A stretch of DNA of 27,486 bases from a virus (Duplodnaviria > Heunggongvirae > Uroviricota > Caudoviricetes), in the IMG/VR virus record IMGVR_UViG_2909282993_000005. One strand, written 5' to 3'. The position numbers and the translations under genes were made by a program. The notes under the pieces are model-generated. The model ran no database searches and had not been told where the DNA came from. It was given only the letters and a program-made list of their open reading frames with translations. Of this stretch, positions 3,019 through 22,731 are shown one piece after another. Positions within the stretch are counted from its first letter, which is position 1; every line of letters starts with the position of its first letter.

Positions 3019-3600
3019 TTACCCTATAGGTGCTACTGGCCATTCAATATCCGGTGCAGTTGTTGTATTAACACGGTTCAGCAACACCCGATACTTCTTC
3101 CAGGCTTCCAGCAACGAGATTTCTTCCTCCGTTGCAATTTCCAGATCTGCAGCATCCTGAAGCGGCGCAATATGCTCACTGGCTACCTGCATCAGGTTGT
3201 TTTTTGTTTCTTCCGCCTCCCGGATCCGGAACAGTTTTTCTGCTTCCGTATCCTTCACCCAGGCTGTGCCGTTCCACTTCTGATATTCCCCTTCCGGCGA
3301 TAACCAGGTGACATTTTCCGGTAACGAGCCAAGTTCAGAAATAAATAACGCGTCGCCGGAAGCCACGTCATAGACGGTTTTTCCCCGATGATCTTCAACG
3401 AGATGCCACGATGCCTCATCACTGTTGAAAACAGCCACAAAGCCAGCCGGAATATCTGGCGGTGCAATATCGGTACTGTTTGCTGGCAGACCTGTATGAG
3501 GCGGAATATATGCGTCACCTTCACCAATAAATTCATTAGTTCCGGCCAGCAGATTATAAATTTTTATGGTCCGTGGTTGTTCACTCATTCTGAATGCCAT
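3019..3600 (-). CDS. Tail fiber assembly protein (Tfa family)
   Basis: 193-aa ORF starting [54 protein letters not shown] and ending [13 protein letters not shown]...IEWP, characteristic of lambdoid TfaQ/TfaR/TfaE proteins. Its start overlaps the stf stop. Confidence 0.85.
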
Positions 3601-7189: not shown

Positions 7190-7306
7190 TTTTCCTCACA
7201 TATGTCATATAGTAAAGGATTATATATACCGTTGTTTTGGACGCTCAAACAGCGAATCAGATCAAATAAAACGCACATTTGTTAACATTTACACAAAGTC
7301 TGCGTG

Positions 7307-7327
7307 GGATATTCTGAAAGAATATCC
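7307..7327. promoter_or_regulatory. 21-bp perfect palindrome ggatattc-tgaaa-gaatatcc (candidate dimeric regulator binding site)
   Basis: Read directly: 8-bp inverted arms around a 5-nt spacer, about 120 bp upstream of the lipoprotein gene start at 7189. No T-run, so not a terminator. Confidence 0.3.
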
Positions 7328-7722
7328 ATAATGTGGAGAGAATCTATTGAAGTGCATGGTGCCGGGTGCCTCCCGGTGAATTCAGTACCAGCACCTGAAT
7401 CCGCGATTATCCCATATACCTACTCGCTGATTGCCCCTCCGCACAGGGGGATTCACCATGCCAGTTTCTTTTAACAAACTCCCCGCAAACCAGAGAACAG
7501 TCAACCGCCTGAATTGTGAAGTATTTAAAAATTTCTCCCGCTAACTGATACCCGGCTAACAGTCTGGCGTTTTCTTTTTCAGCAACGGGAAAGCAACAAC
7601 CACCACACCCGCCACCAGCACACCGTCAGCCAGCACTGACATTATCCGGCTGCTGCAATGCCATTCACAAAAACAGTAAGCAATCACTTTTTACCGTAAC
7701 AGGTGATAATCCAGATATGTAT

Positions 7723-11121: not shown

Positions 11122-11192
11122 CGGTTGTCTCTGCTGGCGCAGCAGGTGCCAGTTGTTCAGGCTGGCGTGCGAATTGTAAACCAGAATGCCAG

Positions 11193-11220
11193 GAAAAAAC
11201 AAAACCCGCCGAAGCGGGTT
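11193..11220 (-). terminator. Intrinsic terminator downstream of hok (stem AACCCGC/GCGGGTT with UUCG loop, then U-rich tail)
   Basis: Read directly on the minus strand: aacccgc-ttcg-gcgggtt followed by ttgttttttcc. Confidence 0.6.
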
Positions 11221-11288
11221 ACGTGCGGGTGCGTTGAGGATGCCTGACACATCAGAGGTGGCGAGGGATTTCTCCCTCGCCGGGTCTC

Positions 11289-11444
11289 TTACTCCTCAGG
11301 TTCGTAAACTGTGAAGACAGCGACCTCCGTCTGGCCGGTTCGGATTCGTAACTCGCAGAGGTCTTTCCTCGTTACCAGTGCCGTCACTATGACGGTTAAA
11401 CAGATGACGATCAGGGCGATTAACATCGCCTTTTGCTGCTTCAT
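11289..11444 (-). CDS. hokD: Hok/Gef-family type I toxin (HokD/RelF-like, 51 aa); in-frame upstream extension to 11501 corresponds to a Mok-like reading frame
   Basis: MKQQKAMLIALIVICLTVIVTALVTRKDLCELRIRTGQTEVAVFTVYEPEE, near-identical to HokD/RelF from recall: single TM helix plus conserved C-terminal periplasmic tail. Confidence 0.9.
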   Translation of the reverse strand: MKQQKAMLIALIVICLTVIVTALVTRKDLCELRIRTGQTEVAVFTVYEPEE

Positions 11445-12164
11445 AGCCTGCTTCTCCTTGCCTTTCGGCACGTAAGAGGCTAACCTAGATTTGCCGTTCA
11501 TAGATTGAGCCTCAGATTAATGTTAAGCGTCTTGCAGGACGCGTAATGTTAACTGGGGCTTTTCTCTATCTGCCTTTGGTGTTCATGCCTGAGGCAGATA
11601 GCCTCAAGCACCCGCAGCAATTCTACTTAACTCCCGTCACCTCGCCAATATAAAATCAATCAGAAAGGCGATCCATAAGAACAACAGCAAGACAATAAAT
11701 TGCCATTACAGCCGCAATAGCTAGCGCACATTTGAGAACCAGCACGACAACCTCCTGTATTGGACGTACACCAGTTCTGATAAATATGAGGCTGTCTCAT
11801 CATTGATTCAATATAACTATTGGGTATAGTTTCTGTGATTTTGTTCTGTAGAAATGGAACACAACAACCAGTCACCACCAGCACTTCTTTAAATACGCCA
11901 AGTCCGACGCAAGCTAACCTTCTAGTCCGCTTTGAGCGAGGAGCGGACCAAACCCGGCCAACTGACTCTTAAAGGGGCCGCAGGAATTTTTCGTCTGAAC
12001 TTTCGAAGCTCCTCTCCCTGAAGACAGAAAACTTCTGTGTGCTGTGGGAATATTGAATCTTTGCATTAGATATAAATAATTTTATCCCGCCTGAAGTTTA
12101 CATTATTTTATTTATCTGTTTTTCTAAATCAGACTGCACTCCTTACTTAAATCAGGAGCCAGTC

Positions 12165-13364
12165 ATGCCATTTGTTATTTATGTGTTTACTATCAGTGCC
12201 TTTGCGCTCGGACTCGCGGAATTTGTCCCCATTGGGCTGACAGACGTTATGGCTCAGGGGTTGTGTGTGGGTGTGGAGCAGACCGGGGCAGCGGTTACAA
12301 CCTATGCACTGGGGGCAACGTTCGCGGCACCCGTACTGTCTGCGCTGACAGCAAGCTGGAGCCGGAAAAATGTAATGCTTACAACTGCCGTTGTGTTTAC
12401 TGCCGGTAGTCTGGCGGCCGCGTTTGCAGCCACATTACCTCAGCTCCTGTTAGCGCGGTTCATTGCTGGTCTGGGACACGGCCTGTTTCTGGCTGCGGCA
12501 TCCAGTACCGCAGCTCGTCTTGCTGGACCGGGTAAAGCAGGCAGAGCGGTGGCTGTGGTATTTGGTGGCTTTACTCTGGCGATGGCAATCGGCGTACCGC
12601 TGAGTACATGGTTGGGGGGGGTGGTCTCATGGCGTCCAGTTCTCGGCGCTATTGCCGCTTTTGGCGCGTTCGGATTCCTTGGACTGTTGTTCGGTATGAA
12701 AGATCCCGTACGCAGCGTGCCCGGTGAACATAGTGACTCAGCAATGCAGAATATCGGCATGCTGTTTAACCGTAAGTTGCTGGCCGGCGCGCTGGTTACG
12801 GTGCTGGCGTATGCAGGCTCGTTTACGGCTTACACCTTTATCGCACCTATTCTGACGCAGGTGACAGGGGTTACCGGAGCAAAGGTGAGTCTGTTTATGC
12901 TGGTTTACGGTATTACAGCTGCGGTAGGTAATATTCTTGGTGGGAAACTTACCGACAGCATGGGGGTTAATCGTGCCAATATACTCATCATTAGCGGCAT
13001 TGTTGTTGTCGTGCTTGGTATGTGGCTGCTGTCATCCTCACCGGTGAGCATGGGCATTCTGGTTGCGCTGCTGGGTATGGTGACATTTGCCGCAGTGCCG
13101 GCACTGCAGGCCCGTCTGATTGGTGTCGCTGAGCAACATGCTCCTCATGCGCATGGTGTTGCTGCCGGCCTGAATATTGCGGGCTTCAACTCAGGTATAG
13201 CGCTGGGATCAGTACTGGGCAGCATTACTATAAGCCACGCCGGTATCGTGTATACCGGTATCAGCGGTGCGATTGTTTCTCTGCTCGGCCTGCTGTTGCT
13301 GCTTGCACAAATCCGTCGCAGCCACAGTCGTAAATTTCAACAGGTTAAAATCGTAGGCCAGTAA
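12165..13364 (+). CDS. MFS transporter (12-TM, DHA1-like efflux/sugar-type family); GC-rich gene
   Basis: 399-aa highly hydrophobic ORF with MFS loop motifs; AGGAG RBS. Nucleotide composition is visibly more GC-rich than the flanking phage DNA. Confidence 0.8.
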   Translation: MPFVIYVFTISAFALGLAEFVPIGLTDVMAQGLCVGVEQTGAAVTTYALGATFAAPVLSALTASWSRKNVMLTTAVVFTAGSLAAAFAATLPQLLLARFIAGLGHGLFLAAASSTAARLAGPGKAGRAVAVVFGGFTLAMAIGVPLSTWLGGVVSWRPVLGAIAAFGAFGFLGLLFGMKDPVRSVPGEHSDSAMQNIGMLFNRKLLAGALVTVLAYAGSFTAYTFIAPILTQVTGVTGAKVSLFMLVYGITAAVGNILGGKLTDSMGVNRANILIISGIVVVVLGMWLLSSSPVSMGILVALLGMVTFAAVPALQARLIGVAEQHAPHAHGVAAGLNIAGFNSGIALGSVLGSITISHAGIVYTGISGAIVSLLGLLLLLAQIRRSHSRKFQQVKIVGQ

Positions 13365-13375
13365 AGGGAGGTTAT

Positions 13376-14068
13376 ATGCTTACCCGTGAAAATATGCTTA
13401 ATGGCACATTTGTCAGGGTGCATGAAGCGCTGCTCCCGGCGAATATGCTCTGGGACGCTGAAAAAATACGCGCATCAATGAACTCTACTCTGGAGGAGCG
13501 CCCGACGGGTGCTCCTTTCTGGATATTTGCCTACGGGTCATTGATGTGGAATCCCGTGCTGGCAATTGAAGAAATGCAACGGGCCCGTCTGAAAGGATGG
13601 CAGCGCAGTTTCTGCATTCGTTTGATATCCGGACGAGCGACTCCTGATGTCCCCGGCAGGATGTTATCGCTCGACGAAGGTGGAATTACCGAAGGTATTG
13701 CGTTCAGACTGCCGGAATCGACTCTTATTAATGAGCTGGAAATTGTCTGGACGCGCGAGATGATAACCGGTCTTTACCGTCCGGTCTGGGCAGACGTTTC
13801 GCTAGGAAACGGTGAGGAAATTCAGGCGCTGGCTTTCGTATCAGACAGACTGCATCCGCATTATGAACAGGACAATCTTACAGCGACCGTAGCGTTGAGC
13901 ATCGCATCTGCCCGTGGAGACATTGGCACGAATGCAGATTATGTATGGAAACTGCAGGCCACTCTGGGTGCGTTGGGAATACGGGATGATTACGTGAGTG
14001 AACTGGCCCTTGCTCTGCATGAGGCTCCCTGTAACGATAAACTTCATCAGCGAGGCGCTTCACTATGA
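13376..14068 (+). CDS. ChaC-family gamma-glutamylcyclotransferase-like protein
   Basis: 230-aa product with FAYGSLMWNP and GRMLSLDEGG...WTREMITG motifs matching the ChaC/GGCT fold signature (YGSL catalytic region). Confidence 0.8.
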   Translation: MLTRENMLNGTFVRVHEALLPANMLWDAEKIRASMNSTLEERPTGAPFWIFAYGSLMWNPVLAIEEMQRARLKGWQRSFCIRLISGRATPDVPGRMLSLDEGGITEGIAFRLPESTLINELEIVWTREMITGLYRPVWADVSLGNGEEIQALAFVSDRLHPHYEQDNLTATVALSIASARGDIGTNADYVWKLQATLGALGIRDDYVSELALALHEAPCNDKLHQRGASL

Positions 14069-14946
14069 GCCATCTGAGCCATCTGCGAACGTTTCTTGAG
14101 GCCTATCGCTCTGGCTCCTTTTCAAAGGCGGCAGAACTACTGGGCATCACTCAGCCCGCGGCGTCACAGCATATCCAGTCTCTTGAGACTCTGGTTGGTA
14201 AGCGTCTGTTTATCAGGCAGGCCAGAGGCGTGACGGCAACCGAAGCTGCGGATGAGCTTGCCCGCTCAGTTTCACCCTTCATTGATGGTCTGGAAGAAAA
14301 GCTGTCCTCTTTCCGGTCAGGCTCTGTACACGGGGGAACAATTAATCTGGCAGGACCGCCAGATTTTATTCATTCCCGGCTTGGGACAGTAATGGCTCCA
14401 CTAATGAAGGAGGGGTATCGCCTACGCTTTCATACCGGCAATAAGCAACGTATTTATTCCCTTTTGCATGACGGGAGCGCCGATCTCGCTGTTACCGCAT
14501 CTATGCCTGATGACCGTCTGTACGGCTATGCACATCTACTGACTGAACGCATGCTCCTTGTTCATGCTCCCGCCATGTCAGAGATCATCGGATCAGAACC
14601 TGGTGCTGAAACGCTTGCCTCATTACCGCTGATTGCTTATGACGAAGAGTTGCCACTGATTAGAGCGCTCTGGGCCTCCATGTTTCAGAGAGCCCCTGAG
14701 ATGCAGGCTACATTCACCATTCCGGATTTACGTATTATCCGCGACTTGGTCTGTGACGGCCACGGGTGGACAGTGCTGCCGGATTATCACTGTGACAATG
14801 ACCTGAAAAGTGGTCGCCTGATTTCAGTGACACCTGCAGACCTCGCTCCGACTAATCATCTTTATCTGGTCTGGAACAAAAGGACGGCTAATAACAGCCG
14901 AACCGCCTATGTTCGGGATTACATTCTTAAAACGTTTCCGCGTTGA
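14065..14946 (+). CDS. LysR-family transcriptional regulator
   Basis: 293-aa product with an N-terminal wHTH typical of LysR (LRTFLEAYRSGSFSKAAELLGITQPAASQHIQSLE) and a C-terminal substrate-binding domain. 4-bp overlap with the ChaC-like gene. Confidence 0.85.
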   Translation: MSHLSHLRTFLEAYRSGSFSKAAELLGITQPAASQHIQSLETLVGKRLFIRQARGVTATEAADELARSVSPFIDGLEEKLSSFRSGSVHGGTINLAGPPDFIHSRLGTVMAPLMKEGYRLRFHTGNKQRIYSLLHDGSADLAVTASMPDDRLYGYAHLLTERMLLVHAPAMSEIIGSEPGAETLASLPLIAYDEELPLIRALWASMFQRAPEMQATFTIPDLRIIRDLVCDGHGWTVLPDYHCDNDLKSGRLISVTPADLAPTNHLYLVWNKRTANNSRTAYVRDYILKTFPR

Positions 14947-14990
14947 TGTTTGAAACGGATGATTGGCGATGTGTATCATAAGTTACGTAT

Positions 14991-15020
14991 GTCCGCTTCT
15001 GGCACAAAGCAGACGCCCAC
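14991..15020. repeat. 30-bp imperfect direct repeat, copy A (gtccgcttctggcacaaagcagacgcccac)
   Basis: Matches copy B at 18664..18693 in 24/30 positions, with a 14-bp core GGCACAAAGCrGAC. Lies between the LysR stop and the convergent membrane-protein gene. Confidence 0.5.
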
Positions 15021-15076
15021 TCTCACGCGAATGCTTTGCCCTTGACTTGCCAACAACCGTATCGCTTGCTCCGCAA

Positions 15077-16369
15077 CTATGGTTTTTTATTAGAACCTTC
15101 GCCACTAAATAAATTATAATAAATTGATTTTATTAGATATCTGTCAGAATCTATATGGTCAGCACGAGTAGCATGCTCTAATGTTTCAAATGCTAGGGTT
15201 TGTGCGGCTTCAGCAAAAATTCCAGGCCAACCCTTACTCAGCATCGACAGTCCTTTAAGTACCCTTATCTGAATTTCCCTCATACTGGCACCATCGCGCG
15301 CAACAGGTGAGAAAAAGTCTTCAAGTAGATCGTTATTCTGAAGTGGTGCAACATGTACAGAAGGATATTTCACTTCTATTTCATCAGATTTATTCTGCGC
15401 GTAAGCGGAAAGTATACGTACACCTCTGCCAATGACATCAATGGCGGTTCCAGGATCGTTCACTGCGGGGGAAAGGGCTCGGCAGGCTATTTCGGCCATG
15501 ACGCTAAGACAAAATCGGGGGTCCTGAGCAAATGAACGTACATCCGAGACAATAATCGTCTCAAGTAAATCGGTGCTGATTGATGACTCCTGGCCCTGAC
15601 TCAGGTACAAAACTGGCGTGGACGGATGTATGAAACTGCCCGGCTGCGCCACGAGGTATACATGACGGGGATCATTGGTCAGCAGCTTGCTGAGTTTCAC
15701 CATATCAACATATTCAACATAGCCAATCTTTTTCGGATAAACTGCAACCGTTCCTTTCGGCTGTTCATTGTTCTCAAGCCATGGATATCCGCCGAGACAG
15801 GGATTTCTTGCTCTCGCAATAAATGTTTCGATGGCCGCCTGTTCTACTTTTGCCGTTGTCTCACCAACCCTCCCCAGAGAGGTCAAATGCTGTATCCAGC
15901 GAAGCAATGTGATGAGGATTAAGGCAATGACAACCAGTGTTACAATGAATAAAATGACTCTCCCCCTTTCTCCATAAGCTCCCATATTGAGGGCAATAAT
16001 CCCTACCAGACTGAAGAGAAAAGAACCGATGAAGGTGGCCAGTACATTTTGTGTGGTGACGTCTTCAACAACTAAACGAGTAGCTCTGGGAGTCACATTA
16101 GTAGTGGCTGAACCGTAGGCTGTGACCATGATGCTCAGCGAAAATGTGGTCACTGCCAGCATACTCGATGCCAGTATGTTCAGAATGTTATCGACTGCTT
16201 CCGCACCAACCTTCACGGAAACCGACTCAGGTATCATTGATTTAAAAAGAATTGATAAAAGGGCCGTTATTATTGCGACAATTGCGAATAACGTTGCCCT
16301 GAACCATAGTTTTTTAAATGTCTGCTTCAGCATCCATTTCCAGCGTGAAATCATTCTGCATTCCCTCAT
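15077..16369 (-). CDS. Membrane protein with N-terminal multi-TM region and C-terminal soluble domain (tentatively DUF2254-like); exact start uncertain (alternative Met codons at residues 6 and 13)
   Basis: 430-aa ORF with four predicted hydrophobic helices in the first ~160 residues and a long hydrophilic C-terminus. Family name is tentative recall. Confidence 0.55.
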   Translation of the reverse strand: MRECRMISRWKWMLKQTFKKLWFRATLFAIVAIITALLSILFKSMIPESVSVKVGAEAVDNILNILASSMLAVTTFSLSIMVTAYGSATTNVTPRATRLVVEDVTTQNVLATFIGSFLFSLVGIIALNMGAYGERGRVILFIVTLVVIALILITLLRWIQHLTSLGRVGETTAKVEQAAIETFIARARNPCLGGYPWLENNEQPKGTVAVYPKKIGYVEYVDMVKLSKLLTNDPRHVYLVAQPGSFIHPSTPVLYLSQGQESSISTDLLETIIVSDVRSFAQDPRFCLSVMAEIACRALSPAVNDPGTAIDVIGRGVRILSAYAQNKSDEIEVKYPSVHVAPLQNNDLLEDFFSPVARDGASMREIQIRVLKGLSMLSKGWPGIFAEAAQTLAFETLEHATRADHIDSDRYLIKSIYYNLFSGEGSNKKP

Positions 16370-16417
16370 ATTGCAGCCGGGATAAATAAATGCCGCCTCT
16401 GTGGCGGCATGTTGCTG

Positions 16418-18421
16418 TTAACGAACCAGATGCAGGAAGTGCAGGTGTTTTTCGTACTGGTCCAGTATGTCATTAATCAGCTGTTCCTGATTCCAGCCCA
16501 TTACATCATAATTTTGGCCGCCCTCTTTGAGATAGACTTCAGCGCGATAATATCGATGTTGTTCACTCTGCTGCTCATCATTATCCAGCGCAGCGAGCGC
16601 GAAGGTCGGTGAGTTATACCCGCGAAGCCTCACTTCATATATATAATTCAGCTCGTTGCCCAAATCGACTTCAAGGCGAATACGATCCTCGGCGGCGTCA
16701 CTGATGTGGCTTATCGTTCCCTGCTTGTTAAGTTCCTCCTGAACCAGCGTCATGGCGGGTTGGATAATGTCGTCCATAAAACGTTTCACAAGAGAGCGCT
16801 TCGGCAAATACGCGATATTGCGTAACCTTCTCTGCCAGGGAATTGGGTTACGTGCAGCCGTAGGAGCAATAGTCGCCATGCTAAGGCTTTCACGCTTGGT
16901 CAAATCCCGACGCAGGGCTTTTAACAGTCCGTATATGGATATTAATAAGATAACTGAGAAGGGCAATGCACTCGCTATCGTTACGGTTTGCAACGCACTC
17001 AGCCCCCCTGCGATCAGCAGGGCAATAGCAACAACGCCCATGAGCGATGCCCAGAAAATTCGCTGCCAGACGGGCGTGTTTGCCACCCCACCTGATGCCA
17101 GAGTATCCACAACCATTGCCCCCGAATCAGCAGACGTTACAAAGAAGACGATGACCATCGCCATTGCAATGAATGACAGCACGGAAGAGAACGGGAAATG
17201 CTCCAGGAAATTAAACAGGGCAAGCGCAACATCCTGCTGAACGGTATTGGCGAGGTCAGTGGCGCCCTGGTTCATGATGAGATAGATGGCGCTGTTTCCA
17301 AACACCGTCATCCACATGAGCGTAAAGCCGGCGGGAACAAACAACACGCCAGTCACGAACTCACGAATTGTCCTGCCGCGGGAAACGCGTGCAATGAACA
17401 TACCTACAAACGGCGACCATGAAAGCCACCATCCCCAGTATAATAATGTCCAGCCCCCCAGCCAGTTGCTCGACTTGGGTTCATACGCGTAAAGGTTGAA
17501 CGTTTTACTCACCAGTTCCGACAGATAACCACCCGTATTTTCCACAAATGACTTCAGCAGAAGCACAGTGGGACCCAGGCACAAGACCAGCGCCAGGAGC
17601 AACACCGCCAGGCCCAGATTAAGCTCAGACAGGATGCGTATTCCCTTGTCCAGGCCGGACACCACCGAAATCGTCGCTAACCCCGTGATGACCACGATCA
17701 AAATGACCTGTACCGTTTCATTGATGGGCACGCCGAAAAGATGGTTCAAACCGGCATTCACCTGCAATACACCGTAACCCAGTGATGTTGCAACGCCAAA
17801 GACAGTGCCTATCACGGCGAAGATATCAACCGCGTGGCCTATAGGCCCGTAAATGCGATCGCCGATAATGGGATAGAGCGCAGAACGCAGCGTTAAAGGC
17901 AGACCGTGACGGTAACTGAAAAAGGCCAGAATCAGCGCCACGATGGCATAAATTGCCCATGCGTGCAGACCCCAGTGGAAGAACGTCAGGCGCATGGCTT
18001 CCTTCGCTGCCGCAACGGTCTCTGGAGTGCCGACAGGTGGCGAAAGATAATGCATCACAGGTTCGGCAACGCCAAAGAACATCAGGCCGATCCCCATCCC
18101 TGCCGAAAAAAGCATCGCGAACCAGGAGTGGTAGCTGAAATCAGGCTGCGCATGGTCTGGGCCCAGCTTTATATCACCGTAACGTGAGAGTCCAAGGAAC
18201 GTGACGCTCAGTAAAATCAGGGCCACAGCAAGTATGTAGAACCAGCTGGCATTCGTGAAGATTTGTTGCTGAAGTAGTTTAAAATTTTTGTCGGCGACAT
18301 CCGGGAATACGGCGGCAAAGGCGACAAGAAGGAAAATTAGCAAAGCAGATGTAAAGAATACCGCTTTGTTAATCTGGCTTGTAGACTTCTTTGGGGTTGT
18401 ATCATTTTCACTCATAATCAT
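16418..18421 (-). CDS. BCCT-family transporter (BetT-like choline/betaine/carnitine transporter)
   Basis: 667-aa product with BCCT signature regions (WTLLYWGWWLSWSPFVGMFIARVSRGRTIREF) and the C-terminal DILDQYEKHLHFLHL tail typical of BetT. Confidence 0.85.
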   Translation of the reverse strand: MIMSENDTTPKKSTSQINKAVFFTSALLIFLLVAFAAVFPDVADKNFKLLQQQIFTNASWFYILAVALILLSVTFLGLSRYGDIKLGPDHAQPDFSYHSWFAMLFSAGMGIGLMFFGVAEPVMHYLSPPVGTPETVAAAKEAMRLTFFHWGLHAWAIYAIVALILAFFSYRHGLPLTLRSALYPIIGDRIYGPIGHAVDIFAVIGTVFGVATSLGYGVLQVNAGLNHLFGVPINETVQVILIVVITGLATISVVSGLDKGIRILSELNLGLAVLLLALVLCLGPTVLLLKSFVENTGGYLSELVSKTFNLYAYEPKSSNWLGGWTLLYWGWWLSWSPFVGMFIARVSRGRTIREFVTGVLFVPAGFTLMWMTVFGNSAIYLIMNQGATDLANTVQQDVALALFNFLEHFPFSSVLSFIAMAMVIVFFVTSADSGAMVVDTLASGGVANTPVWQRIFWASLMGVVAIALLIAGGLSALQTVTIASALPFSVILLISIYGLLKALRRDLTKRESLSMATIAPTAARNPIPWQRRLRNIAYLPKRSLVKRFMDDIIQPAMTLVQEELNKQGTISHISDAAEDRIRLEVDLGNELNYIYEVRLRGYNSPTFALAALDNDEQQSEQHRYYRAEVYLKEGGQNYDVMGWNQEQLINDILDQYEKHLHFLHLVR

Positions 18422-22678: not shown

Positions 22679-22731
22679 TTTCTGGTGACGTTTGGCGGTA
22701 TCAGTTTTACTCCGTGACTGCTCTGCCGCCC
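22679..22731 (+). ncRNA. dicF: DicF small RNA (cell-division inhibitor sRNA targeting ftsZ mRNA)
   Basis: 53-nt sequence TTTCTGGTGACGTTTGGCGGTATCAGTTTTACTCCGTGACTGCTCTGCCGCCC matches DicF from recall, followed by a T-run (22732-22736) and preceded by a structured ~300-nt leader. Confidence 0.8.

Follow-up and report, generated by a model that had tools for sequence, protein, structure and literature searches.

Systems of the hok/sok kind are known and widespread and have been characterised by experiment; plasmid R1 and phage 933W/Sp5 provide the points of comparison closest to the locus analysed here. In R1, pairing of the tac and fbi elements closes the full-length hok mRNA, 3' processing activates it, and the antisense RNA Sok neutralises the toxic Hok; ucb is the anti-Shine-Dalgarno (anti-SD) element of mok, and once the RNA is truncated, the mok SD has dcb as its pairing partner (PMC9841398). 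For 933W, mokW, hokW and a 71-nt sokW are annotated, and the work of Takada et al. established that HokW is toxic, that sokW expressed from its own promoter neutralises HokW, and that a mutation of the -10 element abolishes this protection (PMC8621323). In that work, primer YO-421 changes the sokW -10 element to GAGCCG and so yields a promoter-less sokW, and the hokW and sokW RNAs were both seen on northern blots (PMC8621323). A third relative, hokD (relF) of Escherichia coli K-12, belongs to the relB-relE-hokD operon of the Qin prophage and has been described as having lost components by rearrangement (PMC12214031). [quoted passage not shown]

In this study, we analysed a hok locus in a 27,486-nt stretch of viral DNA (IMG/VR record IMGVR_UViG_2909282993_000005; the whole stretch is called the window below). 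Very probably, this is a type I toxin-antitoxin module of the hokD/hokW subfamily with hok, mok and sok complete, carried on an E. coli chromosome by a defective lambdoid prophage that occupies the Qin site (ydfJ). All of its sequence and structure elements are present and conserved (Table 1), and from its characterised relatives we infer how this copy is transcribed and processed, how toxic it is and what biological role it plays. For annotation, the gain lies in exact coordinates for an unannotated Sok RNA and for the switch elements of the hok mRNA.

Table 1. Coordinates of the genes, promoters and RNA elements of the hok/mok/sok locus in the window
Feature	Position	Strand	Details and basis
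hok/mok mRNA promoter	11620..11648	-	-35 TTGGCG 11648-11643, 17-nt spacer, -10 TAGAAT 11625-11620; consensus scan
Full-length hok mRNA, ~418 nt	11196..11613	-	Rfam start, terminator end; 5' end inferred within 1-2 nt
tac (translational activator element)	11602..11613	-	5' GGGUGCUUGAGG; repeat pairs I7 and I2
5' stem-loop of hok mRNA	11567..11601	-	Repeat pair I1, ctatctgcc...ggcagatag; arms 11555-11575 / 11592-11612
ucb / mok anti-SD box	11553..11561	-	AAGCCCCAG; named by analogy with R1 (PMC9841398)
mok SD/dcb hairpin, Sok target in truncated mRNA	11476..11513	-	Predicted fold; named after R1 (PMC9841398)
mok reading frame, 70 codons	11289..11501	-	SD GAGG 11509-11512; ATG 11499-11501
hok toxin gene	11289..11444	-	SD AGGAG 11454-11458; Pfam PF01848; comparison with K-12 HokD and HokW
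G+C-rich 3' hairpin	11260..11281	-	GGCGAGGGA...UCCCUCGCC; repeat pair I9, 9/9 complementary; compensatory changes in relatives
fbi (fold-back inhibitory element)	11227..11239	-	CCUCAA-C-GCACCC; pairs with tac
rho-independent terminator of hok mRNA	11196..11220	-	Stem 11203-11220 (7 bp, 5 G-C), then TTGTTTTTT
Sok promoter	11458..11486	+	-35 TTGCCT 11458-11463, 17-nt spacer, -10 TAACCT 11481-11486
Sok antisense RNA, ~71-74 nt	11493..11563	+	933W sokW misc_RNA mapped by alignment; ends inferred

The toxin, mok and Sok genes

The toxin frame encodes the small hydrophobic protein of 51 amino acids MKQQKAMLIALIVICLTVIVTALVTRKDLCELRIRTGQTEVAVFTVYEPEE, a size in keeping with the ~50 amino acids of Hok/Gef toxins. 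It matches the Hok/Gef family of Pfam (PF01848) with 76.5 bits against a cut-off of 22 (E = 1.2e-21), and the combined mok/hok frame matches phrog_251, described as 'MokW-like host killing' (E = 3.5e-31). The protein shares 49 of its 51 residues (96%) with K-12 HokD and 46 (90%) with HokW. RefSeq labels the identical DNA hokD, and its entry annotates the hok coding sequence and leaves mok and Sok without annotation. The mok ATG at 11501 opens a frame of 70 amino acids that runs in phase into hok, the same layout as annotated for mokW in 933W, and both this ATG and its SD lie inside the stretch complementary to Sok. A 1-nt insertion (AAAGGTCAAGG) puts mok out of frame in a Rac-type phage and in an IncHI1B plasmid copy; such differences in the mok frame between relatives fit the view that it is the translation of mok that matters and not the Mok product.

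The Tyr47 codon of Hok is UAC (11304-11306, minus strand), followed by G, and this codon is kept in the locus and in 933W; in other Hok proteins, the position is occupied by Cys. The known mRNA editing sites of TadA lie in the tetranucleotide context UACG. For hokC, hokD and hokE of K-12, recoding of Tyr to Cys by A-to-I editing has been reported at the position equivalent to Tyr47 (PMC12214031).

On the opposite strand, an antisense Sok gene encoded in cis, complete with promoter and terminator hairpin, is recognised at the sequence level. The predicted RNA consists of a single-stranded 5' tail of ~9-14 nt, a long hairpin and then UUUUCUCU, and its fold is far more stable than expected (-31.5 kcal/mol, z = -6.2). 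Sok covers the mok start codon and SD, with this complementarity located in its 5' part. The Sok promoter region is identical to that of sokW, both promoter hexamers are invariant in 70 distinct IMG/VR relatives, and the promoter aligns with TTGCGC/TATCCT of an R1-type plasmid locus. A generic scan for promoters and terminators recovered both signals of hok and called neither the Sok promoter, whose -10 TAACCT fits the consensus at 3/6 positions, nor the Sok terminator, which has an imperfect long stem, and Sok was therefore placed by homology. A cluster of substitutions relative to 933W falls at 11488-11498 and 11505, that is, in the first nucleotides of Sok, in the discriminator and in mok codons 2-5; an alternative version of this cluster occurs in ~14% of the related variants of the 70-locus set. 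Such changes might limit cross talk between the Sok RNAs of co-resident copies.

The Rfam model RF01794, named 'sok', matches the locus over its whole length at 11439-11613 on the minus strand, with 111.7 bits against a gathering score of 59 (E = 6e-25). Its position 1 corresponds to 11613 and the match ends with the hok SD and AUG, so the model describes the hok-sense strand, namely, the leader of the hok mRNA, and not the antisense RNA. This leader spans 175 nt in the locus, compared to 71 nt for the antisense Sok, and an automatic annotation derived from RF01794 would place 'sok' on the wrong strand and at the wrong length.

Folding and conservation of the hok mRNA

The position of the hok promoter indicates an mRNA start at ~11613, ~7 nt downstream, which coincides with position 1 of RF01794. 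The full-length mRNA folds at -171.5 kcal/mol (z = -7.6), and none of 100 shuffled sequences folds as well. In this minimum-energy structure, tac and fbi form a long-range closure between the 5' and 3' ends, made of 12 bp with one bulged C, and a second helix, the ucb/anti-SD interaction, joins AGCCCCAG (about 11553-11560) to the mok SD region CUGAGGC. A different picture emerges when the last 60 nt are removed and the RNA from 11613 to 11256 is folded: tac now pairs with AAGCCCC (11561-11555), giving tac/ucb, and the mok SD joins AGCCUC, which lies downstream of the mok start, in the Sok target hairpin. The alternative pairings of tac/ucb and mok SD/dcb are thus found in silico, in an ensemble that is diffuse and whose centroid differs from the minimum-energy fold; the centroid contains a short 5' hairpin, GCUUGAGGC/GCCUCAGGC, the counterpart of the metastable structure of the nascent RNA. 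By analogy with R1, the hairpin at 11260-11281 is presumed to form the protective 3' end of the processed mRNA (PMC9841398).

A predicted long-range helix between CUCUUAC (11472-11478) and GUAAGAG (11286-11292) was considered as ucb/dcb and was dropped after the definitions of these elements in PMC9841398. Separately, the Rfam model of isrK, a small RNA of Salmonella prophages, aligns along its full length with the 3' untranslated region of hok (11199-11280, minus strand) but scores weakly and below threshold (27.8 bits, with the gathering score at 50; E = 1.5e-4 in a search of 181 nt); the hairpin loop, AAAUC, is identical in the two. This likeness could be a chance agreement of two-hairpin architectures, or IsrK could be derived from the 3' end of a hok gene.

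Based on homology with R1 hok/sok and Sp5 hokW-sokW, these elements suggest the following mechanism. The weak hok promoter would give rise to a stable minus-strand mRNA of ~418 nt, in which tac pairs with fbi and ucb masks the mok ribosome-binding site; on this proposal, the closure and the masking together would leave the full-length mRNA neither translated nor bound by Sok. Slow trimming of the 3' end would take off fbi, whereupon tac would pair with ucb and the mok start would refold into the Sok target hairpin. The short, unstable Sok would then pair with the mok SD and start codon, blocking the translation of mok and hence of hok, and the duplex of Sok and mRNA would be marked for RNase III. 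If Sok transcription stopped, the processed mRNA would be translated and Hok would damage the inner membrane.

Conservation was assessed in the set of 70 distinct related loci from IMG/VR. Variability is near zero from ~11632 to ~11201 and rises to 0.3-0.6 on either side, and this drop against diverging flanks marks the unit from promoter to terminator as what is conserved; the -10 element of the hok promoter, next to the start of this block at ~11632, is nearly invariant. Within the block, the tac/fbi pairing is invariant, apart from G-U changes in fbi (68 variants), and the one double compensatory pair lies in the 5' hairpin, where A-U at 11599/11568 is replaced by G-C in five variants, all close relatives. 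For tac/fbi, these 70 loci have diverged too little, so that covariation within the subfamily is slight, and support for the long-range pairing rests mainly on the comparison with R1. An alignment of five loci (the present one, 933W, a Rac-type phage, an IncHI1B plasmid and an R1-type IncFII plasmid) yields a consensus fold in which the helices, including the tac/fbi closure, are kept and 15 pairs change on both sides, among them two pairs in the 5' hairpin and pairs in the 3' hairpin at 11260-11281; in this alignment, MAFFT misaligns the fbi of R1. In the R1-type locus, GGCGCUU stands at the 5' end and AAGCGCC close to the 3' end, so the tac and fbi partners differ between the subfamilies while their complementarity is kept, that is, they covary.

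Most of what the preliminary description had proposed for the locus itself agrees with these data. Its span of 11193-11650 is a near-exact fit to the conserved block of the 70 relatives; the hok frame with its in-frame Mok-like extension is intact, as the frames and the Pfam score above attest; and the terminator that it had noted downstream of hok is there, as the stem and the TTGTTTTTT that follows it. The alignment to characterised loci that it had called for located Sok and its promoter, and its expectation that the Sok gene is preserved is borne out at the sequence level by collinearity with sokW, by the identical promoter and by the stability of the fold. Two points needed revision. The inverted repeat ctatctgcc...ggcagatag exists, as described, and forms the 5' stem-loop of the hok mRNA, adjoining Sok and not belonging to it. 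And the placement of Sok and the fold-back elements in 11445-11650 holds for Sok, tac, ucb and the mok SD/dcb hairpin and fails for fbi, whose position, 11227-11239, is 3' of hok.

The prophage and its cargo

The prophage that hosts the locus is defective, of lambdoid type and situated at the Qin site (ydfJ). To one side of the locus lie ydfZ-ydfI-ydfJ (truncated), tail-fibre remnants, iss, the lysis genes, tRNA-Arg, tRNA-Ile, Q, RusA, a DUF968 gene and a 92-aa ORF, followed by 'hokD' itself. On the other side, genes for an MFS transporter, a gamma-glutamylcyclotransferase, a LysR regulator, a DUF2254 protein and a frameshifted BCCT transporter form a cargo block of chromosomal type at about 12165-18413, followed by DUF977, YdaT, regulators, ydfA/B/C, dicF, dicB and ydfD. 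Across 551 bases around the locus, the sequence is 100% identical to that in the chromosomes of E. coli O169:H41 strains. Besides RF01794, Rfam models score above their gathering scores for IS009 (3059-3257, minus strand, inside the tfaQ coding region), STnc100 (7300-7490, minus strand), two phage tRNAs (8190-8443, minus strand; Arg and Ile in RefSeq) and DicF (22680-22731, plus strand), all of which are usual for Qin-type or lambdoid prophages.

The arrangement in which relB and relE stand directly upstream of hokD in the same orientation is not found here, and a tblastn search with the K-12 RelE and RelB proteins detected no similarity to either in the whole window (best E = 4.9). The preliminary description was thus right that relE and relB are absent; its premise that they should be present does not hold, since the K-12 form is in the minority. 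The relE-hokD junction of the K-12 type occurs in 1,166 of 5,426 complete E. coli genomes, and the stand-alone form in at least 3,380 of them, when counted as places covering at least 80% of 11150-11700, a threshold that requires the leader to be present. As the stand-alone locus is the common, complete form, relBE is not an expected partner. Related copies number two per genome in the median and 11 at most, and the genomes with an exact match hold three.

The cargo had been said to begin about 660 bp away, and the first coding sequence, at 12165, does lie 664 nt from the mok ATG; the homology junction is closer to hok. A stretch of ~310 nt (11640-11948) is common to ~1,700 genomes, of which only 283 continue into the MFS gene, and this places the boundary between cargo and prophage backbone near 11945. 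The spot upstream of hok differs from element to element, with relBE in K-12, an acetyltransferase gene in phage Evi and different ORFs in 933W. We also observed, immediately upstream of the hok promoter, a hydrophobic ORF of 29 codons, VLVLKCALAIAAVMAIYCLAVVLMDRLSD (11656-11745, minus strand), whose GTG start follows a strong ribosome-binding site, AGGAGG, by 5 nt and whose frame is open in 14 distinct DNA variants, several of them with synonymous changes. The ORF has no match in Pfam, NCBIfam or PHROG and no annotation in RefSeq or phage records; the product may be a small membrane protein. One could speculate that accessory genes repeatedly enter lambdoid prophages at the stretch just upstream of the hok leader, that an intact hok/sok serves there as an addiction device that keeps the cargo in a decaying prophage, and that the 29-aa product is perhaps a second small membrane protein of that unit; we regard this combined scenario as quite improbable.

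Activity, role and relation to described systems

A reading in which there is no Sok gene at all, with 11445-11650 being the leader of the hok mRNA only and mRNA folding alone controlling the toxin, would be in line with the Rfam 'sok' match to the hok-sense strand and with a promoter scan that makes no plus-strand call at 11458-11486. Yet the plus strand encodes a 5' tail, a long hairpin and a U-run (z = -6.2) and runs collinear with the annotated sokW, an RNA seen on northern blots (PMC8621323), and its invariant promoter hexamers align with the Sok promoter of R1, which makes this reading extremely improbable. Somewhat more can be said for a locus that is intact but functionally silent, a prophage passenger unable to kill owing to low expression, to weak toxicity of the Tyr47 form or to cross-repression by the Sok RNAs of other copies. 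The chromosomal hokA, hokB and hokC gave no postsegregational killing and have been suggested to be inactive (summarised in bioRxiv 10.1101/2025.08.07.668861), and several related copies commonly share a genome, as the counts above indicate. Moreover, Tyr47 requires A-to-I editing to become the conserved Cys, and this editing reaches only ~6% in K-12 hokD (PMC12214031), so the toxicity of the present Hok may be weak. Against silence stand the regulatory elements and both promoters, which are undisrupted in the 70 variants while the flanks diverge sharply; HokW, which is 90% identical, also has Tyr at that position and is nonetheless toxic and regulated by sokW (PMC8621323); the HokD coding sequence proved toxic in a survey (bioRxiv 10.1101/2025.08.07.668861); and a single chromosomal copy of R1 hok kills once Sok is removed (PMC9841398). 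On balance, we consider a silent locus improbable.

For an active module, the likely role by analogy is either to stabilise the prophage and its cargo through postsegregational killing or to help lysis on induction, as with hokW. If the module worked mainly in the phage life cycle, loss of Sok on induction would let Hok speed lysis and release and would not stabilise the element. The findings for Sp5 speak for such a role: hokW-sokW doubled phage release, and HokW appeared after RecA-dependent induction (PMC8621323), and the present locus, at ~93% identity, has a lambdoid backbone of the same kind around it. However, the window contains only tfaQ and a truncated tail protein gene between ydfJ and the lysis genes, with no head or tail morphogenesis genes there, and phage release therefore cannot be the selected benefit unless a helper mobilises the element. 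A function centred on lysis thus seems unlikely, though not far-fetched, and stabilisation of the element and its cargo appears to be the more likely role. Working in this way, the module may help to retain a defective prophage that carries transporter and regulator genes as cargo.

Set beside the described systems, the locus has the same order of elements as R1 hok/sok (parB), that is, tac, 5' hairpin, ucb, mok SD, Sok target, hok SD, hok, 3' hairpin, fbi and terminator. The Sok promoter occupies the same position in the R1 type, and the two share the sequence islands GCUUGAGGCU.UCUGCC, AGCCCC, GAGGC, UAGCCUCUUAC and CAAGGAGAAG. In contrast, the Hok proteins are similar only at the family level, the Sok hairpin of the locus is 19 nt longer and the loop of its 5' hairpin 16 nt shorter, and mok shares the reading frame of hok in the present locus and forms an overlapping frame of its own in R1 (PMC9841398); the R1 copy is carried by a plasmid and the present one by a prophage.

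The closest characterised relative is hokW-mokW-sokW of Stx2 phage 933W / Sakai prophage Sp5 (AF125520), whose DNA is about 93% identical over the module and 91% identical across the whole pairwise alignment. The two sequences agree fully from the Sok promoter hexamers through the hok ATG, and identity also extends to the Sok hairpin, tac, fbi and the hok SD. Both encode a 51-aa Hok and an in-frame 70-aa Mok, and both belong to lambdoid elements. They differ in five residues in the C-terminal part of Hok (L32V, T45V, V46D, P49S and E51K), in the 3' terminator and in the state of the host element, a defective prophage at the Qin site here and an inducible Stx phage in the case of 933W.

The K-12 hokD gene of Qin occupies the same prophage site and gene neighbourhood, with ydfU/DUF968 to one side and dicF-dicB farther away. 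Its DNA identity with the window is 97.7% and is confined to 11195-11458, which covers the hok SD, the ORF, the 3' hairpin, fbi and the terminator, whereas nothing upstream of the hok SD is present: K-12 lacks the hok promoter, tac, ucb, the start of mok and all of the Sok gene. The break coincides with the Sok -35 element, where relE-relB abut. Because the homology ends at 11458, the K-12 gene is a rearranged, truncated form, and the window contains the complete, unrearranged one. The locus is, in other words, the complete form of hokD, of which the textbook relBE-hokD copy of K-12 is a truncated derivative.
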